This document shows, in pieces, positions 3,218 through 36,207 of a stretch of 64,000 nucleotides of DNA (the first letter of the stretch is position 1; each line of letters begins with the position of its first letter). The stretch is from NCBI GenBank assembly GCA_000004985.1, contig GG738852.1, one strand, 5' to 3'. Under the pieces are notes generated by a model. That model was not told the origin of the DNA. It did no database searches and saw nothing but the letters and a program-made list of their open reading frames with translations. The translations under genes were made by a program, and so were the position numbers. The stretch is from Naegleria gruberi (Eukaryota).

Positions 3218-5047
3218 ATGGGAAGAAAGAAAAAGCAGGTTACTCTAATTGATTTGGAGTGTTATACGTTTTGTTATGAATTGATTTATTCCGATAAGGA
3301 TACTAGGGATTGTTTCTTTGATTATTTGATAACCACTCATAATGAAGGTAAATAGTTTCGAATAGTATAATATTTATTTATCATACGAATTTATTCATTA
3401 ATAGAGGCCATTTACTTTATTCAAAAAGTACAACAATTTAAAAAGAAGGATTTGACCAATAACAAGAAGGCCAAACTTGCAATTGAAATATTTAATTGTT
3501 ATTTGAAAGATGGTGGAAAATACGAATTGAATTTATCATCAAAAGATAGACAACACATCAAGGAAGAGTACGAAAAGGTTGGACAGTTGGATAATTGCGA
3601 AACCTGTCTTCTTTCCGATAATATATTTACTGCTCTGGAGCAGCAAATTCACTTGAGTTTGAAAGAAGCTAATTTTCCACATTTCATCAAATCTCCTAAA
3701 TTCAGAGAGCTTGCCATGAAGCAAACAACAGATTTCCTGGATAAGATTGGTTTTAGAATGAATGCTAAAAAGATTGATATTATTCAAAGATTACTGGGTT
3801 CTTCATCATCTATAATTGCATCACCTTCAACACAAAGTTTGGCAAGTCTTGATGGTTCAATGGACTCTTTTAGATTGAGTGAAAGTCTCACAGGTCCAAT
3901 TATTGATCCAAATGCCTTCCTCAGAGGAGAATCATCAAATGGTTGGAAATTATTGGACAAACATTCACATATTACTGTGGAAGATTTCAGATTTATGGCA
4001 TGCAAGGTTTTCGAAAAGGATTCCAAAGCTCAAGACATGAGCAAATTCTTCCAAAATTTGGTTGGTGATCCATCTGCAGATAGCACATCAAGAAGACAAT
4101 CAGCTCCAAACTTGGCAAGTAAATCTGCATCCTATTCAGAGAGATCAATGTCTCTCTCAGTCAACAACTCTCCAAGTCTCCAACGATACAATAGCGAAAA
4201 TAATAATGTGAGAAAAATTTCAATAGATTCATCTAGTAATGTGACGGAATATTTTGAGGATATGTGGACAAAGAGTGAGAAGAAGACATCCAATTACACA
4301 CTGTATAGTTATGATTTGAAAACTTCAATGTTCGACGAGGCAGATACTGATGTTATGGAATCACTGAAAAATATTCACATATTCAAGACTGAAGTGGAAT
4401 ATCCTTACAATGTAGATTTTGTTGTGGAAACATTCGCCAGATCACAGTATAGAATTGATTTTGACAATATGTTGAAAGAATCATTTTCTCTCGATTTTAT
4501 GCACGTTCATCAACCTCCAAGTGAGGGTGAGGTTAGACGTGAGGAAGTTTCGAGTAGCATGTTACAAGAGGTTTGGCGATTTTCCTACTCACTTCTCAAT
4601 CTCAAAGATAGAAGTTTCATTGTCGAGTCGAGTCTCATGTACGATGAGCAGAATAGAGCTTATTTACTATTGAAAAAATCAGTAGATAATGTCATTATTG
4701 ATGATAGTGATTGTGTCAGAGGTCGTCTCTTGCAATTAATGGTATTTGAGAGAAAGGAGAAGGAAAAGACAATCATGACAGATTTTGTAGTTTTGGATAT
4801 GAAGGACAGTGTAAATAATATAATTTTTGAGAATTGTGTTGCCAAGAGAGCAAAAGAGTTTTACGATAAGGGAATGTCTGCTCTAAAAGCAAACATGGAA
4901 CTCATCAAACATAACTTCCCAACACCAAGCGATAGCGACCGTATTTTGGAAACACTTGTCAATAATAACAAGTGTGGATATTGTAAACTAGGATTCAAAC
5001 TGAGGACGAATAATAATTCTGATCTAGATGACCTGGACGATTTGTAA
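3218..5047 (+). CDS. RGS (regulator of G-protein signalling) domain protein with a long Ser/Asn-rich C-terminal region. Exon 1 is 3218..3347, a 57-nt intron (GTAAAT...TTAATAG) spans 3348..3404, and exon 2 is 3405..5047.
   Basis: Exon 1 reads MGRKKKQVTLIDLECYTFCYELIYSDKDTRDCFFDYLITTHNEG and splices in phase 1 to EAIYFIQKVQQFKKK...KLAIEIFNCYLKDGG...FTALEQQIHLSLKEANFPHFIKSPKFRE. This is the classic RGS box layout: a nine-helix bundle with conserved IY..FI, A..I...YL and F..A...I motifs. Confidence 0.75.
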
Positions 5048-5055
5048 AATAATAA

Positions 5056-6672
5056 TTAAAATAATTTATGATTAAGTGTACCATGACCGGTTTGATTTTG
5101 ACTTGGATTGAATCCTCTCACAATAGCATTCAAAACATAGAGTTTAGATCTACGTACAGCATCTTCCAATGTGGAGCCAAGAGCAAGATTGGATGCAATG
5201 GCAGCAGCTAAAGAACAGCCAGTACCGTGAGTATTGTTTGATTGAATGAAATTGGCGTGAAGAGAAACAAATCTGTCAGCCTCACTTTCATATAAAATAT
5301 CAACTGCATATTCTGAATTAATCAAGTGGCCTCCCTTAACAAGGACATTTCTAATACCAAATGTTTCTGAAATTGTCTTGGCAGCCTTCTTGGAAAGTTC
5401 AACTGTGGTAATCTTGAATGGTGAGTCAGTAAGCTCTAGAATTCTCTCAGCTTCTGGAATGTTTGGAGTGATGAGTGTGGCCATAGGGAAGAACTCTCTA
5501 ACAAGCGCATCTACAGCTTCATCCTTCAATAAATTATGCCCACTAGTTGAGACCATCACTGGATCAACAACTACCTTAATATTTGGATTCAATTCTCTAT
5601 AGTGTTTGAGTTTTTCAATGACAACTCTAATTAATTCAGAACTGTACAGCATTCCAGTTTTAACTGACACAATATTGATATCGCTCATGACAGAGTCTAT
5701 TTGTTTTGCCAAAAATTCTGCAGAAACAGGGAATACTCCTTGCACTCCCAAAGTATTTTGAGCAGTGAGGGCAGTAATAGCACTTGTGCCAAACAAGTGA
5801 TGAGCATGGAAAGTATTCAAATCGGCTTGAATACCAGCACCACCTCCAGAATCAGAACCAGCAATGGTCAATGCGGATTTTGGAGCTACAGGATTGAGAT
5901 TTTTCACTTGTCTACGTTCAATTTCCTCAACTGGCCACTCTTCCAAATAATAAGCAGAATCCCAAAATAAATATTCCATTTGACTTGCCATTTTCACATT
6001 TTCAAAACACTTTTCCTTTTCACTTTCTGATGCTGTTGGTGCATATGTATTAATAAATGCTGAAAATTGTTCAACTCCCTTCTTGAATTCATCAGAAGAG
6101 TACGACTTGATCCAATCAGCATATGGATGCGAATCTGTCAATAATACTTCTCCACTTTCATTCATCATCTTGTTGGTAATATATTGAGCAACTCTGTAAT
6201 AAATATAATAGCAAGGCAAACATGAACACAAGGTTTGTAAAAAAGTATCGGAATTAGCACTTGCCAACAAGAATGATGTATAGAGGAGGCATGATTTTGA
6301 AGCCTTTGCATCCTTCACCGAATCAATATTCCACTTTTTAAAGTATTCGTGATGTAAATTGGCAGCCTCTTCAAGTGCTCCTTTCGATTGCTCCAACAAG
6401 AATAAATATTGTGCCTCTCCATTCACTTCCTTCAACAAGTCAATTTTAGTTGCAGCCAACACAAAAATCTTACTAAATGTTTGCAAATAAATTGTATCTT
6501 GAATAATATAGAATCGGAAAATGTTTTGATTCAATGTTCCTTCCATCATTTCCCTAATAAATGGTAATCCTAAAATTCCGTGCATGATTTGATCCTCCAT
6601 CATGGAAATTAAAGCACCAGCCAATCCTTCAAAACATGCCGGATGAGAGAGTTGATGAGTATTGTTGGTCAT
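5056..6672 (-). CDS. Bifunctional thiaminase-II (TenA) / hydroxymethylpyrimidine-phosphate kinase (ThiD), with TenA N-terminal and ThiD C-terminal. Single exon.
   Basis: A 538-aa ORF. The N-terminal ~230 aa are TenA-like (GLAGALISMMEDQIMHGILGLPFIREMMEGTL..FRFYIIQDTIYL). The C-terminal half is ThiD (LTIAGSDSGGGAGIQADL, VVDPVMVSTSGHNLL, HGTGCSLAAAIAS). Confidence 0.85.
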   Translation of the reverse strand: MTNNTHQLSHPACFEGLAGALISMMEDQIMHGILGLPFIREMMEGTLNQNIFRFYIIQDTIYLQTFSKIFVLAATKIDLLKEVNGEAQYLFLLEQSKGALEEAANLHHEYFKKWNIDSVKDAKASKSCLLYTSFLLASANSDTFLQTLCSCLPCYYIYYRVAQYITNKMMNESGEVLLTDSHPYADWIKSYSSDEFKKGVEQFSAFINTYAPTASESEKEKCFENVKMASQMEYLFWDSAYYLEEWPVEEIERRQVKNLNPVAPKSALTIAGSDSGGGAGIQADLNTFHAHHLFGTSAITALTAQNTLGVQGVFPVSAEFLAKQIDSVMSDINIVSVKTGMLYSSELIRVVIEKLKHYRELNPNIKVVVDPVMVSTSGHNLLKDEAVDALVREFFPMATLITPNIPEAERILELTDSPFKITTVELSKKAAKTISETFGIRNVLVKGGHLINSEYAVDILYESEADRFVSLHANFIQSNNTHGTGCSLAAAIASNLALGSTLEDAVRRSKLYVLNAIVRGFNPSQNQTGHGTLNHKLF

Positions 6673-9133: not shown

Positions 9134-9540
9134 CTTCGATTTCACTGGTCTTGTACAGCTGGTTGTGAAGTTTAATTGATTAAGGACTTGTTAAGCTCAG
9201 GTCTCAATGCGATGGTGTATTGTTTTTTTTGGTTGATATTGTTTGGAAAAACTTCATTGATTTGGAATTAAGATCCGTGAGAATGCCGGCGGCAAGTGCA
9301 ATAACTAATTTGTTAATTTGTTATTGTATTGAGTTAACCGGATGTCCAGTTTACCGAAAAAGACCTTATTAAGATCAAAAGGATAAGAAAGGGCTCACCA
9401 GCACGAATTGATGTTCTTTCGAGAGTTAAAACTGTTAAGAATCTAGATTAGTCAAAAAGTGTGACAATATTTAATGACGAAACTTATCACCCATGTCGCC
9501 TTAACGCAATTGTAAACAAATGGTAGTGCTTTGTATGAAC

Positions 9541-12500
9541 TCACAGCCCCTCTTCTTCCTTCTGTTTCATCTTTGCTTTGAGTTCCAGCAGCAACTTATT
9601 CTGTTTGATTGGAAGCTTGCCCAAAAAGCTAAACAAATCGTCATGTTTGATTGATAATTCAGCATTCAAAAATTGTATCACCTTAATTGTTTCTCTGTTG
9701 GAGAAGAACAAATCTATTGGAGCCTCATCTTGGTTCTTGTCATTCATATCTGACAGCACAATTGGACCCTCTATTGTATTTGAGTCTTCGATAACTTGCA
9801 GTATTAAACTGAAGAAGAGAGATTCTTTTGTGTGTTTTAGAGTTGGATTTTTGATGAGTTTGAATCTAAGGCGATTCAGAAAACCTATCAGGAGCTTGTT
9901 GGCCGATGAGGGTGCTTGGATAACCTCCAAAAACACTGTCAACCTCTTGTAAAAGAGTATTGTTTGATAAAATTTGGTTGTTTGCATATCCAATTTTCCT
10001 TTTGACTTGTCCCATAACGATTCTTGAGTTCTAGTCTTTTTGTGATTTCCAACCTTGTAGAGAGCTAATTTTTCCGAAGATTTCATCACCTTCTTGCTTA
10101 CTTTTGTCAGGTGTTCATTCGAACCTGCCACTACATTTCTATTCTCTGATCGATCATCTAGTTTTACCAGCAAATCATACTGAAGTTTTGTTTGAGTGGA
10201 AATAAAGTCCCTTCTCCATTGACCACTGCTTGTCTTTCTGAAGGTAACAGTTTTTGCTTCCTTCTTTTTTTTCAATGCATCCACCTTTCTTGGTGATAAA
10301 TCTTTGGTTTTGTAAAAAGTTTCCCCATTAATATCAACAGCTCCCTTTTTAATGAGGAAATTGGATCCATGTGGACCATCTCCATTTGGATCAAAACCAG
10401 GGGTTACACTGTGTGAAAACTTATTAACCTCTGACATTATGGATTTGAACTCTCCCTCAAATTGTTGTAACTTCTCGTCTAACATTTGCTCATGCTCTTC
10501 ATCAATCAACTGCTTGTTGAGGGCTGCACTATTGAGTTCGTCAACATTGATATTCGAAATATTCTTATATTGTATCCTAGATCTAATGCTATCTATAATA
10601 TGATCTACGTTAGAGGCAAACATATTTGTGTGTGACATTGATGTTGACACAAATGAGGCAGAATTATTTACAGAGATGGATTGATTATTAATAAGATTAT
10701 GGAGGGAGGCTGTACTTGAGTTGGATGAATTAGTTCCACTGCCTGGTGTGAGTGGAGTTAGGTTGTTAGATGATTTTTCTGGGACGTTGGCCACAAAAGT
10801 TGCAATCTTGATTGGAGGAAAAACACGTTCTAAATCTGCTGTTTGATAGTCAACTTCACAATCTTCAATATCAACAATTGTATGGTATCCATGATTGGAT
10901 TGAAGTGGAATTTCTTTAGCTTTCACTCGTTTCAATCTCTCCTCACTTTCTCCCAATTCTTCAGAAGGAAATTTAGCAACAATGCCACCAATACCGGATT
11001 GGGCTGCATGATTAACACCTGTAACGTAATCTCCCTTCTTTTTGTCTTGAGCTCCTGAAGCTCTTTTAATTGTGTCTATAAGTCCTAGTTTTGTTTTCTT
11101 ATTTCTCTCAGCAATGTCAACTTGTTCGTCTGTAATGAAAAGATCATACCCTCCTCCGCCACCACCACCAGGACCAATACTAGATGTTATGCTTCTTGCA
11201 CTGAGTGGAATTGCAATACTGATTACAGAGCTTTTGGTTGTGAGGGGTTTTTCATTGTTAGTTTGAACTTCAGTAATGAAAGTGCCTCCATTGTGTTCTT
11301 GAGTTAGAGAGTTACTCACTTGCTCTTGAACAAATTGTGAAATTGGTTTCAGTCGCTTTTTCTTTTTTCTCTCCCATAAATTGTTTTCCTTGGCATTCTC
11401 CTTGTTGAATGGCTGTTCCTCAGTCTGCCTTTTAAATACGACATGTTTTTCTGATTGATTTTCACTTTCAATTTTTGATTTCATTGGTGAACCTGTTGAT
11501 TTGGCTCTTTGTCTGATTTTTTTCATTGTTTGTTTCATGGTTTCAAAATCTTCATTCTTTTCAATAAGGTCCTTTTGATAGAGTAAATACTTGTTATAAA
11601 ATTCCTCAACTGGTTCTCCTCTGTTAAATAATTTGACATTATTTCCGTGAGTTACCATCATTGCCTTGTTTTTTCCTCTTGACACATGCTCAAATTTCCA
11701 TAATTCCTGTTCCAATTTTTGATAATAGTCACTTGTCACTTGACCTTCCAGACTTTCAGAATTAAGCAATTCTGTTGAGTGTCTCAAAATCAAATGTTCA
11801 GCATTCGCTTGTTTATCATTCTTGTAAGTTCCGTATGGAACAGCATCCTCACCTATTGGAGGATGAATAAAGCCAGGAATACCTAGTAAATTGATATTAT
11901 CAGCTGGATTTTCCTTCTTGTTTTTCTTATTTTTTGAGCTAGTTTTAGAAGGAACACCCGTGTCAACAATTAAATCTGCAGATGTAATATTAACACGAGC
12001 AGAATTGAGAACGTGTTCATCATCATCCTCGTCATGTACTGCAGGGTTGTTTCTCCTCGAGTAAGTTGCTCCTGCTGTTTGAGGTCTTGGTTTTGACTTT
12101 TTAGAATCATTGCCTGCATTGTTACCAATTACTCTATGATTCTTCTCTTGCATTGTCTTAATGTACAAATCATTGACTGTTTGAGGGTAGTGATTTTGAA
12201 GGGATGGAACAACATATTCCAGTTTGGGAGTTGAACTAGTGGGTGTCTTTTCTACACCTGCTGGATTGAAAACAGACTCTCTCCTTTTCAAAACAAATCC
12301 CCCATTTCCAACTAATGACCTGGCACTCTTTGGACTTTTTGTCAAGTCAATTCCTCTCATTGTTTCGTTTGTATCCACTGTAGGAGGTGTTGTTGTTACA
12401 GTATTAATAATTTCTGATAATCCCTGAGCTTTGGGTACCTCCTTTGCAATATCAATTTGAATACTCGGAATATCAAATGCAGTAATTTGCATATTACTAG

Positions 12501-29855: not shown

Positions 29856-30626
29856 ATGTTAAAAAATACCATCAATTCATTATTCATAATCAAACCTTCA
29901 AGAGATTTAAGAGTTTCCTTGATTTTTAATTCTAATAATTTATTCAACAACACGTGTACTTTTTCAAATAATTATAGCAATAATTTTTCATTTGTTAACC
30001 ATCATAACAATCAATCGAGAGGAATGAAAATTTATACAAAAACTGGAGACAAGGGAACAACATCACTCTACTCGGGAGAACGTAGAACAAAGGATGATTT
30101 GGTATTTGATGCTTTGGGATCAGTCGATGAACTGAATGCTAATCTTGGACTTGCCTATGAACATTTATTGCAAATTAAATTGTGTGATGAATTGGGAGAA
30201 ACTGATATGAACAATATTGAATTGTTAAAATCGAGTTTGACATCTGTTCAGAGTAGATTGTTGGATTTAGGATCTTGCATTGCCACTCCTATTGAAACAA
30301 CTACTTCCGAAGATAAGATTAATCGAGTCAAGTTTGATAATTCGAATATTGAAAAGGTAGAAAATTGGATTGACACACTGGATGGATCTTTACCACCTTT
30401 GAAAAATTTCATATTGCCTGGTGGTGGATTGACTGCTTCTCAATTGCATGTAGCTCGTACTGTTTGTAGAAGATCCGAGAGAGATGTTGTTTCACTTGTA
30501 AATAGAGGTCAACAAGGTTTGGAAGATGTACAGAAATATTTGAATCGTTTGAGTGACTTTTTGTTTGTTGCTGCTCGTTATGCTTCAAAGATTGAGGGTA
30601 AGGAAGAAGTTGTATATAAAAAATAG
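29856..30626 (+). CDS. MMAB: ATP:cob(I)alamin adenosyltransferase, PduO/MMAB type, with a mitochondrial presequence
   Basis: MKIYTKTGDKGTTSLYSGERRTKDDLVFDALGSVDELNANLGLA is the PduO-type signature (IYTRTGD.G.TSL..G.R..K). First in-frame ATG is at 29856. The ORF ends with TAG at 30626. Confidence 0.85.
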   Translation: MLKNTINSLFIIKPSRDLRVSLIFNSNNLFNNTCTFSNNYSNNFSFVNHHNNQSRGMKIYTKTGDKGTTSLYSGERRTKDDLVFDALGSVDELNANLGLAYEHLLQIKLCDELGETDMNNIELLKSSLTSVQSRLLDLGSCIATPIETTTSEDKINRVKFDNSNIEKVENWIDTLDGSLPPLKNFILPGGGLTASQLHVARTVCRRSERDVVSLVNRGQQGLEDVQKYLNRLSDFLFVAARYASKIEGKEEVVYKK

Positions 30627-30654
30627 ATTATTATCAATCATTCAATCATTTAAA

Positions 30655-32560
30655 TTAGTTGTGAGAGGTGAATAATTTAATGAGTGGTTTTTTGGCAACC
30701 TTTCCCATAGCATTCTTTGGAATTTCCTCTCCCTCTGGTAAGACAATGAGACGAGTTGGTATCTTGTATTTGGCTAGGTCACGAGAGCAAAAATCTTGCA
30801 ATTCTTTCAATGTGAGTGTTTGACCTTTGTGAAGCGAGATGAGAGCACCAACTCTCTCACCATACTCCTCATCTGGTACTCCCAAAACAGCACATTCCTT
30901 AATCTTGCTCATATCGAGAATTACTCTTTCAATATCGAGAGCTGATATTTTGTATCCACCAGATTTAATAATATCAGAACTGAGTCTTCCACAAATTTTG
31001 TAATAACCCTCCTCATCGATTAATACTGAATCTCCTGTAATGAAATAGCCATCCTCTGTAAAAGCTTTTCTGGTTGCATCTGGTCTACCTAAATATTCTT
31101 TAAAAATACTTGGACCTTTGACTAATAATTCACCTGGCTCATTCGGTTTTGTAATTTCCTCCCTTGTGTCAAAGTCAACAATTTTAACTTGAACTGTGGG
31201 AAGTGGAAAGCCAACACAGCCCATCTTTCTCTTTTCCTTATCCATTGGGTTTGAAATAGCCATTAGAATTTCAGACATGCCAAATCTTTCCAATAAATTA
31301 TGATGCGATATTTTTTTCCATTTTGAATAGACTGAAGTTGGTAAGGCAGCACTTCCAGATACCATCAATCTCAATTTCTCAACTTGCTCAGTGTAGTGTT
31401 TTTGAGTTTTATGAGAAAGCTCATCATAGTAATGAATAAGTTTGACATAAATGGTTGGAACTGCCATGAACACATTAATATGTTTTTCGTCTGGTTTCTT
31501 GTCTGAATTGGTCAATTTCTTCCATACTTGTTCGGGATTGAACTTCAAAAACTCAATGGTAGCTGCACAATAGAGTGGGCAAGTAAGAGCATTGATTAAC
31601 CCATGAACGTGATGAAGCGGAAGTAAATGAAGGATCATATCCTTCTCAGTCCACTCCCATTCAGAACAGAGAATATTGGCTTGTGCCAATATATTTGAAA
31701 ATGTGAGTACAACAGCTTTTGGGTTTCCTGTTGTGCCTGATGTGTACACAATTAACTTGTATTCATTCGAATATTAATATTTTCCTTAAATAAATATTGA
31801 GCTACCTACAGATCCATTTTCCCTATCGTTTTGTTTCAAATCAATCACTTGAAGCTTTGAATTATCAATTGATTTGGTCAAGGAGTTATCATATTCTATA
31901 AATTTGATATGTTTCATTTCTTGAAATAAAGGTTCCAATGAACTCTTCTTTTCCTTTTGATAAATGACAACCTTACATTGGGAATCATCAATATAATATT
32001 TCAATTCCTTTGTTGGATGTGTATTACATAGAGGAACAGCAGTTCCATTCACTCTCCAAATTGACCACAATGTGACTGTATAATCATATCCAGGATCGAA
32101 CAAGAAACAAATCTTTTCATTGGTCAATAGTTTCACTTTTTGATTAGAATCATCAATAGCATTCTCACCACAATATTGATCAACCAATTTGTTTGCAAAA
32201 TTGCCACTATCCCGAATCAAATCAGAATAGGTATATTTTGTTGTGATAAATTCTTCACTGTTTGCTTTGTTTTGTTCATGTTGGTGGTGATGATGCTTTT
32301 CCGAATGATGATGATTGGTAATAATGGCAATATTATCCTGTCTAGAGAGTCCCTTCTCGAATAATTTTGAGGATGAAACTATGAAAAGATGATCAACATT
32401 ATGTTACTAAAAACGAAAACATACTGTACAATGTATGATCAAGTCTCTTTTGCAGATTTTCTAACTTGATATTCTTTCCATTCCATATACAATATATTAA
32501 TCTATTACCATTTGCCAAAAGTGTTTGTTTCTCGTTAGCCGAAGAGAACAGCTTCCTCAT
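30655..32560 (-). CDS. ACSF3: ACSF3-like acyl-CoA synthetase (malonyl-/methylmalonyl-CoA synthetase family, AMP-binding). Proposed exons are 32509..32560, 32425..32460 (36-nt micro-exon), 31810..32378 and 30655..31755. Introns are 48, 46 and 54 nt.
   Basis: Exon 4 has LIVYTSGTTGNPKAVVL (AMP-binding motif I) and LLPLHHVHGLINALTCPL, the ACSF3 hallmark PLHHVHGVVNALLCPL. Exon 3 (..LFEKGLSRQDNIAIIT.., ..YTYSDLIRDSGNFANKLV) is in the same frame as exon 4, but two in-frame TAA stops lie between them. A 54-nt GTAGGT...CAAG intron removes the stops. Exon 3 has no in-frame ATG. The only model that supplies one is MRKLFSSANEKQTLLAN (GTAATA donor) joined through a 36-nt exon (GTATGT donor). The two 5' exons are inferred with lower confidence (about 0.45). 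Confidence 0.7.
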
Positions 32561-32659
32561 ATTCTTAATATTACAATTATTTAAATTTTTTTCAATTAAA
32601 AAAAATATTCCAATATCTCGCTTTGTTGTACGAGCCTATTTAAAATAATCGGAAGAAGA

Positions 32660-33055
32660 ATGGAAGATCTATTGTTGGATGCTTTGGAAAATAATACTTT
32701 GGAAATTGTTGACAAGTTGAATCAATTGTCTATCATGATTGAAAAGTATGATGCAAAGGAAACAAAACCTCACTGGTTTGATACAATTGAAAATTTGGAT
32801 AAACAATATACTGATTTGTTGTCCTTGTGTCATCAACATGCCAACACTCCGCTCATGCAAGAACAATATCCATATGATTTATTACAAGTTATTGATAGAA
32901 ACGAATCACCTGATCAATACTTGAGAACTGTCACCGAAAGGGCACAACAAAAAATTGAATATGCTAACGGAAAGAAACTTGCTGTCAAACAATTGAGAGA
33001 TGTTATTAGAAGTGAGATTGAAAAGAACTTTTCCGAGAATGATATGAAAGAGTAA
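32660..33055 (+). CDS. MED10: Mediator complex subunit 10 (Med10/Nut2)
   Basis: 131 aa. PYDLLQVIDRNESPDQYLRTVTERAQQKIEYANGKKLAVKQLRDVIRSEIEKNFSENDM aligns with human MED10 PLEVFEYIDQGRNPQLYTKECLERALAKNEQVKGKIDTMKKFKSLLIQELSKVFPEDM. Confidence 0.75.
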   Translation: MEDLLLDALENNTLEIVDKLNQLSIMIEKYDAKETKPHWFDTIENLDKQYTDLLSLCHQHANTPLMQEQYPYDLLQVIDRNESPDQYLRTVTERAQQKIEYANGKKLAVKQLRDVIRSEIEKNFSENDMKE

Positions 33056-33057
33056 TT

Positions 33058-35844
33058 TTACTTTTTTCTTTCGGAAAGTTTTGGCCTTTTATCATTAATT
33101 AGCGTATCTTCCACTACTCGAGGCTTTTGGGTAATTTTGCTTGGAGCACGATTATTACCTACACTTGTATTATTAGTTTTCTTGATAGAATTGCTACTTT
33201 TGGATGTGGAATTGGCTTTTTTCGACTTGTCATCAATAAAATCAGACAGTTTCACACTAATAGTTTTGGATGGGGAGTAGTTATTGACCTCAGTTTCTTT
33301 GAGGATGGCTGAAGTATCTCTCAATGCTGTTGTAAGAATGGTATTGAGAGATTGTCTAGGAGATTCGGGTCTCTTTGGAATTGATGGATTTGTGAGAATT
33401 GGTTGATAGGGCTTGTTACTCTTCTTTAAAGGATTCTTGTTATTTAACACTTTGGGTGTGGCAACAAATTGAGATTGTTGAGGAGCAAAAGCAACAACTC
33501 TTGGTGATGGTCTTGGAGAGGGTACTGAAGATCCCTTAAATGCCTTCTCTAACCTTTTAGGTATGGTTGGAGAAATGAAAAATGAATCATCTTCATTGAT
33601 AAATATTATATCTGGTTCATACTCTTTTGGTTGAGACAAGAGCTCTGGTGAAGGTTTTCTGTTTGGTGTCGAAAGGTCTTTCTTGTCAAGTTCTGGAGAA
33701 CCCATATTGTAATTTAGATTCTTACTTGATTCTGCTCTTTGCTTTTTTAACAATTTGTGAAACATTAGAGTTTCCTCCTCTGAATCTTGTGGTTGAGTGA
33801 TAGCACTGGTTCCTTCATCATTGTGGTAGTTTGGGATATTATTGAGAGTGAAGAATTTTTCAACTTCCTCTTCAATCTCCTTCTCAGTGAACATATCCTC
33901 CTTTAAATCGACTTCTGTTGACGATTTAATAGGCGTTGCAACATTGTACATCGGTTCTTCCTTTTTTTCTTCTATTACTTCTCTTGTAAGTTTGTTCTCT
34001 TCATAAGTTGAAGTTGGTTTTCTGATATCTTGTATTGTGTAATTGGTTGAAAGCATTTCTTCAGTTTCCAATATTCTCTCCTCAATGATTTTGTCATTAG
34101 CCTTGTCCCCAGAGTCTTGAGTGGATTCAGTGTAAATCGATCTCCTTGCTTCATTTCTTAGGAAATTCTCGATATAAGGACCTTTTCCAGTTTTTGGGAG
34201 GTACGGAAACTTGAACGGTTATGGGTGAATAACTTGATCAGAAAACTTACATTCATAAGATTGGATGGCTTGATGTCGATCCATTCTGCATTTCTTAACA
34301 TTCTATCAATATCAAAGGGCAGTTTAATGTTGAGTGCACCAATCTTTTCCAATTCCTTCTTGTGTAATCCCTTAGTGGGTGTGACCACAAGATCCATTTC
34401 ACTCTTCGCTTCTTCTTGAGGTTTACATGCTTCAATAATGGGTTGCATATCCTCAATTGGTGGAGGGCTTAATTCTAGAGTTGATTCATGTATTGGCATT
34501 TGGAATTGATTCGTAGAAGCTAATTCAATTATTTCAACTATCTTTTCAGGAGTCTTTTCTTCAGTTGTGACCTCATCTGTAATACACGGTGATTCCATCA
34601 TGATTGTGAGCTGCTCTCTAACAAGACTATCATCCTCTTCAGTATTTGTCATTGTTGATGAGTCAATTGTTCCACCTTCTTTATGAGCATAAGTGTTAAC
34701 TGTTTGCTTGATTAGCGAGTGAAACTTGCTTAGGGATTTCTCAAATATTTCGAAGAGTGGCTCTTTCTTAATATCATCAGTTGAGTATTGTTTTTCTACA
34801 AGTGTTTTTTTAGAGAAGGCAAAGAATAAATGTAGAGCTCCTTCAAAACCTAGGGAAGTATTCTTTAGGGATTGTTTGTGTACCAGTGCTTCTTTTAATA
34901 AAAAGGCCATTACGTCGTCAGTTACTGCGTTTGGTTTAAGTATTTTCAATTTTAAATAGGAACTTACAATGATCGTAATATGCACTGTTGGAATATAACT
35001 TTTTAGTGTCCAATACTGCCTCTCTCCACAATTTAGGGATAACAAAAGGAGATTCTTCACTTTCAAAGTTGACCAGAATAGAGTTTGATAAGAGATTATT
35101 AACAGATGGACTCTCTGAAAGAAGAGAAACTGATGATTCAATTGCTTTCTTATCCAAGCTATTGTTATTGAAATACTGTTTAAATCTTCTCAATGTGATT
35201 GCTCCCTTGTAGGCTCCTGCATCATTCATTACCTCAAATGCTTGATTAAGGACAAACTCTGGTGTTATTGATTGACCATTCCTAGCATAATCACTTGCAA
35301 TAACAATAACAAGAACAAGTATTTCCTCCAATGATAGTACTGACTTGTTCTCATCATCCAATAGGAAGAATAAATGCTCAACCGATCGGAGCCAATCATC
35401 CGTACATTGCCACTGAAATTTCAAGTCCTTATTTTGACAATTAATTAACATTCCCATCAGAACATCTAACTGATAATCTGTATAATTTTCCATAAAGAAT
35501 TTGTTCCATTCCGACTCCATTATATTATTTCGTTTTTGAGGAGATGAGGCTACATTCTCCTTTAGATCTGTTATTGTAAGTGCTGATTGTTTGGTCCATT
35601 GCAAGAATAGCATATCAAACTCCTCCTCTGAAATCATTCCACCTAATAGCCAATCCAATATTGTTTTAAATTTCTCCAATGATTCAATACTTGCTTTCCC
35701 TCCACATATGTCCAACACAATTTCAATGTACAAGCTTTTTGCATGATTATCCTTAGGATTATTTGTTAGGGACGATGTGAAATTCGAAGAGTTGGGTTGT
35801 CTCTCCGATGATGATGAAATGTGACCATGTCCCTTAATACTCAT
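33058..35844 (-). CDS. Hypothetical ~930-aa protein (N-terminal EF-hand-like helical pairs, acidic middle, Ser/Pro-rich C-terminal tail). Three exons: 34968..35844, 34251..34924 and 33058..34209. Introns are 43 nt (34925..34967) and 41 nt (34210..34250), both GTAAGT.
   Basis: The three overlapping track ORFs 34936..35925, 34158..35141 and 33058..34071 join in frame at GTAAGT donors (..YYDH|LTDDVMAFLL.. and ..IKPSNLMN|FPYLPKTG..). In each case the read-through alternative hits a stop within about 30 codons. No domain was assigned with confidence. The first in-frame ATG is at 35844 (MSIKGHGH..), and an upstream exon is not excluded. Confidence 0.5.
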
Positions 35845-36207
35845 TTGTTTTATATTGGATTTTTTAACGGAAACAAACAAGGGCTCACTTGGGCGGGAAA
35901 ATACTGTTTCTTTGTGTATGTTCAAATTGATGATTATTTCTAATAAATTATCTCAAATTTAGATAATAAATTAAACAGAGATTCTTTAACTCTCATCATC
36001 GACGATGCAGACACGGAACCAATACTTTCTTGCATAATATCGGATAAAAAGTTTTAGTAATTTTAATTACATTGTACTATAGAAAGATAGTGATGATAAT
36101 TTGTTCATTATTAATAATGTTAATACCCACTCCAATACTCATCAACAAGTTAATTGACTCCACCGTATTATTTATTTAATAAATTTATCATCACAGAAAT
36201 TTCTCGT

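Follow-up and report, generated by a model that had tools for sequence, protein, structure and literature searches.

A convergent MMAB-ACSF3 gene pair in Naegleria gruberi lies on a synteny breakpoint and is probably coincidental

Introduction

When two genes whose products touch the same metabolism lie side by side in a compact protist genome, do they form a functional unit or have they become neighbours by chance? This question is raised by a 64,000-nucleotide stretch of contig GG738852.1 (hereafter the window; NCBI GenBank assembly GCA_000004985.1) from the heterolobosean Naegleria gruberi NEG-M, in which a single-exon gene for the adenosyltransferase MMAB (29856..30626, + strand) converges with a three-exon gene for a ligase of the ACSF3 type (30655..32560, - strand). 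An initial annotation of this DNA had placed both enzymes in one branch of malonate/methylmalonate-CoA metabolism and had proposed functional clustering, through co-regulation or a shared 3' regulatory region. Here we show that the pairing is seen in N. gruberi alone among the organisms compared, that its junction coincides with a breakpoint of synteny, and that its tight spacing is a property of the genome. We conclude that these are very probably ordinary genes whose adjacency is neutral and coincidental, the outcome of a lineage-specific rearrangement.

Results

Structure of the locus

The coordinates and the tail-to-tail geometry of the pair, with stop codons 28 bp apart, were exact as first annotated. 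The MMAB open reading frame (ORF) is uninterrupted from its ATG at 29856 to its TAG at 30624-30626. The ACSF3 gene starts with an ATG at 32560 and ends with a stop at 30657..30655, and its spliced product has 601 amino acids. The features of the pair are as follows.

29856..30626, + strand: MMAB gene, PduO-type ATP:cob(I)alamin adenosyltransferase; one exon, 256 amino acids including a 56-amino-acid basic N-terminal extension; PF01923
30627..30654, no strand: spacer separating the MMAB and ACSF3 stop codons, ATTATTATCAATCATTCAATCATTTAAA; 28 bp; collinearity with N. fowleri also ends here
30655..31755, - strand: ACSF3 exon 3; AMP-binding core from YTSGTTG onward plus C-terminal domain, with the catalytic Lys in PKNAMGK; PF00501, PF13193 and alignments with MatB and human ACSF3
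31756..31809, - strand: ACSF3 intron 2; 54 nt, GT..AG; the spliced product equals XP_002680971.1
31810..32378, - strand: ACSF3 exon 2; includes a His-rich insertion at amino acids 67-83
32379..32424, - strand: ACSF3 intron 1; 46 nt, GT..AG
32425..32560, - strand: ACSF3 exon 1; basic N-terminal leader, which may be a mitochondrial presequence

The region is AT-rich (about 34% GC), with short GT..AG introns, and its composition agrees with the published GC content of N. gruberi, 35% (PMC9928731, Table 1). The junction is spanned by an independently assembled metagenome contig of 1956 bp from ENA (L008), which covers 29930..31885 of the window at 99.9% identity. Because this contig covers it, the MMAB/ACSF3 junction is real DNA and no artefact of assembly. 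The contig (ERZ929261, PRJEB11402, contig k127_580422) comes from N. gruberi or a near-identical strain that was present in the sample or contaminated it; being from essentially the same organism, it adds no evolutionary depth to the comparisons below.

MMAB and ACSF3 are unlinked in the relatives examined

Reciprocal tblastn, taking in 10 kb on either side, showed the MMAB-ACSF3 pairing to be absent from N. fowleri, N. lovaniensis, Willaertia magna, Acrasis kona, Dictyostelium firmibasis and Spizellomyces punctatus. N. fowleri carries MMAB (FDP41_007955) on VFQX01000004.1 and ACSF3 (FDP41_003780) on VFQX01000035.1; the two genes of N. lovaniensis are also on separate contigs, of 1,082,833 bp and 675,707 bp, and Acrasis has MMAB on a contig other than that of ACSF3. 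The convergent downstream neighbour of MMAB in both N. fowleri and N. lovaniensis is a protein of 612/671 amino acids with weak epimerase/3-beta-HSD similarity.

Metagenomic sequences gave the same picture. No ACSF3 was found on a Naegleria-like contig of 4.2 kb (L007), whose MMAB is 70% identical and has a different gene 9 bp downstream. A metagenome scan for Naegleria-like MMAB loci returned relatives of at most 55% identity only, and among 80 metagenomic MMAB/PduO-type loci, 543 kb in total, there were zero matches to the ANL family. Thus, the adjacency is not conserved in the relatives examined and is seen in N. gruberi alone. The initial annotation had suggested a synteny check of the two orthologues and had named adjacency in no relative as the result that would speak against it; this is the result we obtained.

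Synteny breaks at the junction

Three further features lie on the far side of ACSF3.

32561..32659, no strand: divergent spacer from the ACSF3 start to the Med10 start; 99 bp; the conserved side of the ACSF3 locus
32660..33055, + strand: Med10 gene, head to head with ACSF3; PF09748, E 1.1e-16; 76% identity to N. fowleri by tblastn
33058..35925, - strand: multi-exon gene, collinear with the N. fowleri gene of 765 amino acids that flanks Med10; its stop lies 2 bp from the Med10 stop; tblastn and ORFs

At the ACSF3 locus of N. fowleri (L009) the order is the 765-amino-acid gene, Med10 (9533-9964, - strand) and ACSF3 (10001-12140, + strand), the latter two again head to head. By tblastn, L009 6859..12052 is collinear with 35778..30733 of the window, exactly up to the 3' end of ACSF3 and no further; within this stretch, the 765-amino-acid gene (L009 6859..9423) corresponds to 35778..33235. 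None of the genes that follow ACSF3 in N. fowleri (a clathrin-adaptor sigma subunit, an ankyrin protein, a peptidase M16, a DUF4116 protein and actin) is represented in the 64-kb window. On the other side of the junction, the upstream neighbour of MMAB, a protein of about 880 amino acids with a muHD domain in L007, is common to N. fowleri, N. lovaniensis and L007, and none of the genes that flank MMAB in N. fowleri or N. lovaniensis occurs in the window.

The MMAB/ACSF3 junction therefore lies at a break in synteny. Willaertia, Acrasis and the N. fowleri clade all have the two genes unlinked, which by parsimony makes this the ancestral state; the MMAB|ACSF3 junction then represents a rearrangement on the branch to N. 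gruberi. It is Med10, and not MMAB, that ACSF3 has as a conserved partner: the divergent Med10-ACSF3 pair is found in N. gruberi, with its 99-bp spacer, and in N. fowleri, with 36 bp between the called genes, and it is absent in Willaertia.

A different neighbour of ACSF3 recurs in two other organisms. A clathrin-adaptor sigma-subunit gene (PF01217) adjoins ACSF3 in N. fowleri (L009 12278..12769, downstream and on the same strand), and a PF01217 gene also adjoins it in D. firmibasis (L090 8750..9558, upstream and divergent); none lies beside ACSF3 in N. gruberi. As the orientation differs between the two lineages, this neighbourhood is probably another coincidence.

Tight convergent spacing is a property of the genome

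The stop-to-stop gaps of the eight convergent ORF pairs in the window are 2, 8, 28, 53, 130, 320, 325 and 578 bp. The 2-bp pair consists of Med10 and the homologue of the 765-amino-acid gene (33055..33058) and the 8-bp pair of an RGS protein and ThiD/TenA (5047..5056), and both pairs are supported by Pfam or by homology. Called genes at the N. fowleri, N. lovaniensis and L007 loci have convergent gaps of 9-184 bp. Since gaps of 2, 8 and 53 bp also occur in the window, 28 bp is not unusual here. Tight 3' packing is a property of this genome, and the 28-bp spacing probably reflects general compaction and no shared regulatory element. With a typical spacing, a junction on a breakpoint and a pairing that is not conserved, the proposal of functional clustering or of a shared 3' regulatory region finds no support.

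At the 2-bp and 8-bp pairs, 3' untranslated regions (UTRs) must reach into the coding region of the neighbour or be nearly absent. One member of the 8-bp pair is itself a fusion: the ORF at 5056..6672 (- strand, 538 amino acids) joins TenA/THI-4 to a phosphomethylpyrimidine kinase (ThiD), a fusion for thiamine salvage/biosynthesis.

The adenosyltransferase gene and its public model

By sequence comparison, the predicted product of 29856..30626 is MMAB and resembles the mitochondrial MMAB of eukaryotes more closely than it does the PduO-type proteins of bacteria. It matches PF01923 over profile positions 1-171/171 with 190.7 bits (cutoff 24; E 2.8e-56) and TIGR00636 with 166 bits (cutoff 108.45). 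Its best PDB match is human MMAB, 2idx (E 2e-43, 151.8 bits), whereas bacterial PduO types reach at most 107 bits (about 1e-29). The identity first assigned to this gene is thus borne out by both families and by the closest structure.

Outside a 17-amino-acid gap in the public model, all 183 aligned residues (183/183) are identical between the MMAB of the window and N. gruberi XP_002680800.1 / D2V571. That model, of 183 amino acids, cuts out a 51-nt 'intron' at 30466..30518, which codes for RRSERDVVSLVNRGQQG, and in the alignment with human MMAB these residues lie opposite the conserved segment 'vcrraerrvvplvqmget'. Because its 51 nt encode a conserved segment like that of human MMAB, the intron is almost certainly false. 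XP_002680800.1 also begins at M57 and so is without the 56-amino-acid basic N-terminal extension (K+R 5, D+E 1), which may be a mitochondrial presequence.

The ligase is of the ACSF3 type

The 601-amino-acid spliced ligase equals XP_002680971.1 / EFC48227.1 / UniProt D2V572 residue for residue (N. gruberi NEG-M, 938,756-bp scaffold). Its public name is 'long chain fatty acid CoA ligase'. The predicted protein has the ANL architecture, PF00501 plus PF13193, and its alignments contain the motifs YTSGTTGNPK, GMSE, TGD, GRLSSDIIKSGGYKIS and PKNAMGK, the last with the catalytic Lys. Its top NCBIfam match is NF005702, malonyl-CoA synthase, with 346 bits against 325 for the runner-up; the cutoff of this bacterial model is 558, which the ligase does not reach. 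Among PDB families, MatB (4fuq and 3nyq, 226-228 bits) ranks above oxalate-CoA ligase (202) and FadD13 (143), and human ACSF3 as query ranks them likewise. The human ACSF3 sequence used here was confirmed by exact look-up as 'malonate--CoA ligase ACSF3, mitochondrial isoform 1 precursor [Homo sapiens]' (P0241).

Compared directly, the ligase and human ACSF3 (Q4G176) share 40% identity over 574 amino acids, end to end (E 2e-140), and phmmer scored the ligase at 403 bits against human ACSF3 and at 226 bits against Rhodopseudomonas palustris MatB (RpMatB). Residues R354, E359 and R471 of human ACSF3, which we take to be mutation sites in CMAMMA (combined malonic and methylmalonic aciduria), are conserved in the N. 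gruberi protein. In a neighbour-joining tree, built with no non-MatB outgroups and with unsupported deep nodes, the ligase is joined by its N. fowleri and Willaertia counterparts at bootstrap 100 and by that of Acrasis at 70. The heterolobosean sequences form one clade, which lies amid eukaryotic ACSF3s and a Bacteroidota/cyanobacterial group, and RpMatB falls far outside. This placement fits vertical inheritance in Heterolobosea.

Taken together, the predicted protein holds as an ACSF3 rather than a generic acyl-CoA ligase, with formal clade membership resting on score gaps. The possibility that it is a generic ligase, which the initial annotation had offered as a refutation, is not what the comparison with human ACSF3 returned. 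The same comparisons point to XP_002680971.1 being an ACSF3-type malonyl/methylmalonyl-CoA synthetase, for which the public 'long chain' name is less accurate. In the literature, we found no mention of these accessions, nor of Naegleria together with ACSF3.

Three side features of this protein deserve mention. The first 47 amino acids, at the N-terminal leader, include 8 K+R and 3 D+E. A His-rich low-complexity insertion, NHHHSEKHHHHQHEQNK (32320..32370 of the window, amino acids 67-83), falls in a 23-amino-acid gap relative to human ACSF3. Bacteroidota and cyanobacterial (Nostocales) 'acyl-CoA synthetases', at about 430-444 bits, are about as near to eukaryotic ACSF3s as these are to each other, and the alphaproteobacterial RpMatB stands far off at 226; a dedicated phylogenetic analysis of these bacterial affinities may be worthwhile.

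The pathway link is loose

MMAB serves methylmalonyl-CoA mutase by making its adenosylcobalamin. The main substrate of ACSF3 is malonate (PMC8770830), and the functional link between the two enzymes is loose, the ACSF3 step not being adjacent to that of MMAB. The idea of one pathway branch survives in part: both products touch methylmalonyl-CoA metabolism, but the tie is looser than had been claimed. When 30 large ORFs from across the 64-kb window were scanned against Pfam, none proved to be MUT, MCEE, PCCA/B, MMAA or MLYCD. The further deduction, that the DNA comes from a B12-using organism that is not a typical (Dikarya) fungus, was right, N. gruberi being listed among the protists with cobalamin-dependent enzymes (PMC8085122).

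Discussion

MMAB and ACSF3 of N. gruberi are standard orthologues, already known from the genome publication of 2010; the pairing carries little biological weight, being apparently coincidental. We propose that both would be ordinary, vertically inherited nuclear genes for enzymes that are probably mitochondrial, and that the conserved block of the 765-amino-acid gene, Med10 and ACSF3 would have gained MMAB at its 3' end through a rearrangement in the N. gruberi lineage. Each gene would presumably be driven by its own distal promoter, with ACSF3 sharing its 99-bp divergent spacer with Med10. In our model the new neighbourhood would be neutral, and we see no sign of selection for linkage.

Several points weigh against this reading. 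With 16,620 genes predicted in N. gruberi (PMC9928731, Table 1), a set of 10-15 genes of propionate, methylmalonate and malonate metabolism would be expected to contain about 0.005-0.013 adjacent pairs, so that a pair from within the set is nominally rare, with a chance below about 1%. Across hundreds of pathways of similar size, however, one or a few same-pathway neighbours should be expected by chance, which we infer rather than compute genome-wide. N. fowleri and N. lovaniensis amount to one comparison, not two, because their genomes are highly collinear (PMC9928731). The gruberi clade is represented by one genome, and the pairing could be conserved among close relatives outside our sample. 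Within N. gruberi itself, the pair may be co-regulated or may overlap in its 3' transcripts. The nominal rarity would suit a selected two-gene mini-cluster, whose co-location was kept in N. gruberi to co-regulate the handling of methylmalonate, as would the contact of both products with methylmalonyl-CoA metabolism (for ACSF3 deficiency and CMAMMA, see PMC8658908). We nevertheless consider such a mini-cluster unlikely. The pairing is not conserved in the relatives examined and sits on a breakpoint, the window ORFs scanned include no further gene of the pathway, and ACSF3 acts mainly on malonate. Moreover, a shared promoter is not possible, because the genes converge.

A gap of 28 bp would be shorter than two typical eukaryotic 3' UTRs, and RNA interference machinery has been reported in Naegleria (PMC9928731, section 3.4.1). 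These observations would favour an obligatory overlap of the two mRNAs at their 3' ends, with antisense transcription linking the expression of this particular pair, whether negatively or positively. Unrelated convergent pairs in the window lie 2, 8 and 53 bp apart, however, so that any overlap would be genome-wide and not specific to this pair, and we hold this explanation to be a shade less probable even than a mini-cluster. Still further down we would place a variant in which the rearrangement itself created overlapping transcript ends, and with them a very young, orientation-dependent antisense coupling of two enzymes of methylmalonate metabolism. Joint acquisition of the two genes as a piece of a bacterial operon could draw on the scores of the Bacteroidota/cyanobacterial ligases (about 430-444 bits, against 429-464 for non-heterolobosean eukaryotic ACSF3s). 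Against it, MMAB is of the eukaryotic type, with 152 bits to human MMAB versus at most 107 to bacterial PduO types; the ACSF3s of Heterolobosea form a single clade, and two spliceosomal introns interrupt the gene; sister species carry MMAB and ACSF3 unlinked; and a ligase neighbours MMAB/PduO in 0/80 loci. The introns, the type of MMAB, the single heterolobosean clade of the ligase and the separation of the two genes in sister species effectively exclude this origin, to which we give hardly any credence. Equally negligible is the possibility that the junction is an assembly chimera, which was considered since NEG-M is an older Sanger draft of 1,977 scaffolds (PMC9928731, Table 1); the independent contig L008, which crosses the junction at 99.9% identity, effectively excludes an artefact.

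Coincidental adjacency after rearrangement is thus the explanation we prefer for this pair. The case illustrates that, in compact protist genomes, synteny has to be checked before neighbours from one pathway are labelled a 'cluster'. Two practical by-products are that the public name of D2V572 is the less accurate one and that the gene model XP_002680800.1 almost certainly contains a false intron and lacks the probable presequence.

Comparison with known systems

The N. gruberi MMAB resembles human MMAB (2idx, 6d5k) in its full-length PF01923 domain, in the retained KIYTKTGDKG and VCRR.ER.VV stretches and in having an N-terminal extension before the catalytic domain. It differs in about 14 additional loop residues (amino acids 105-130) and in its N/S-rich leader of 56 amino acids, which is unrelated in sequence. 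The human MMAB gene is on chromosome 12, adjoining MVK rather than ACSF3.

With human ACSF3 the ligase shares the blocks LPLHHVHG, INVFMAVPTIY, RLMVSGSAALP and DIIK.GGYK.SAL. It departs from the human protein in the His-rich insertion of 23 amino acids near the N-terminus, in the absence of a loop of about 18 amino acids from human 386-420, and in two substitutions (T358 to S and R558 to K). Bacterial MatB (R. palustris 4fuq, S. coelicolor 3nyq) is the best PDB family for both the ligase and human ACSF3, and has the core motifs of the ANL family and the catalytic Lys in common with them; it stands further away, at 226 bits to the ligase versus 403-464 for eukaryotic ACSF3s. Bacterial matB usually lies in a matABC operon rather than beside a gene for a corrinoid adenosyltransferase.

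The locus shares with eukaryotic metabolic gene clusters and co-regulated pairs the presence of two non-homologous, metabolically linked genes as immediate neighbours. It differs from them in consisting of two genes only, which converge, are paired in no relative examined, meet on a synteny breakpoint and are spaced as is typical of their genome.

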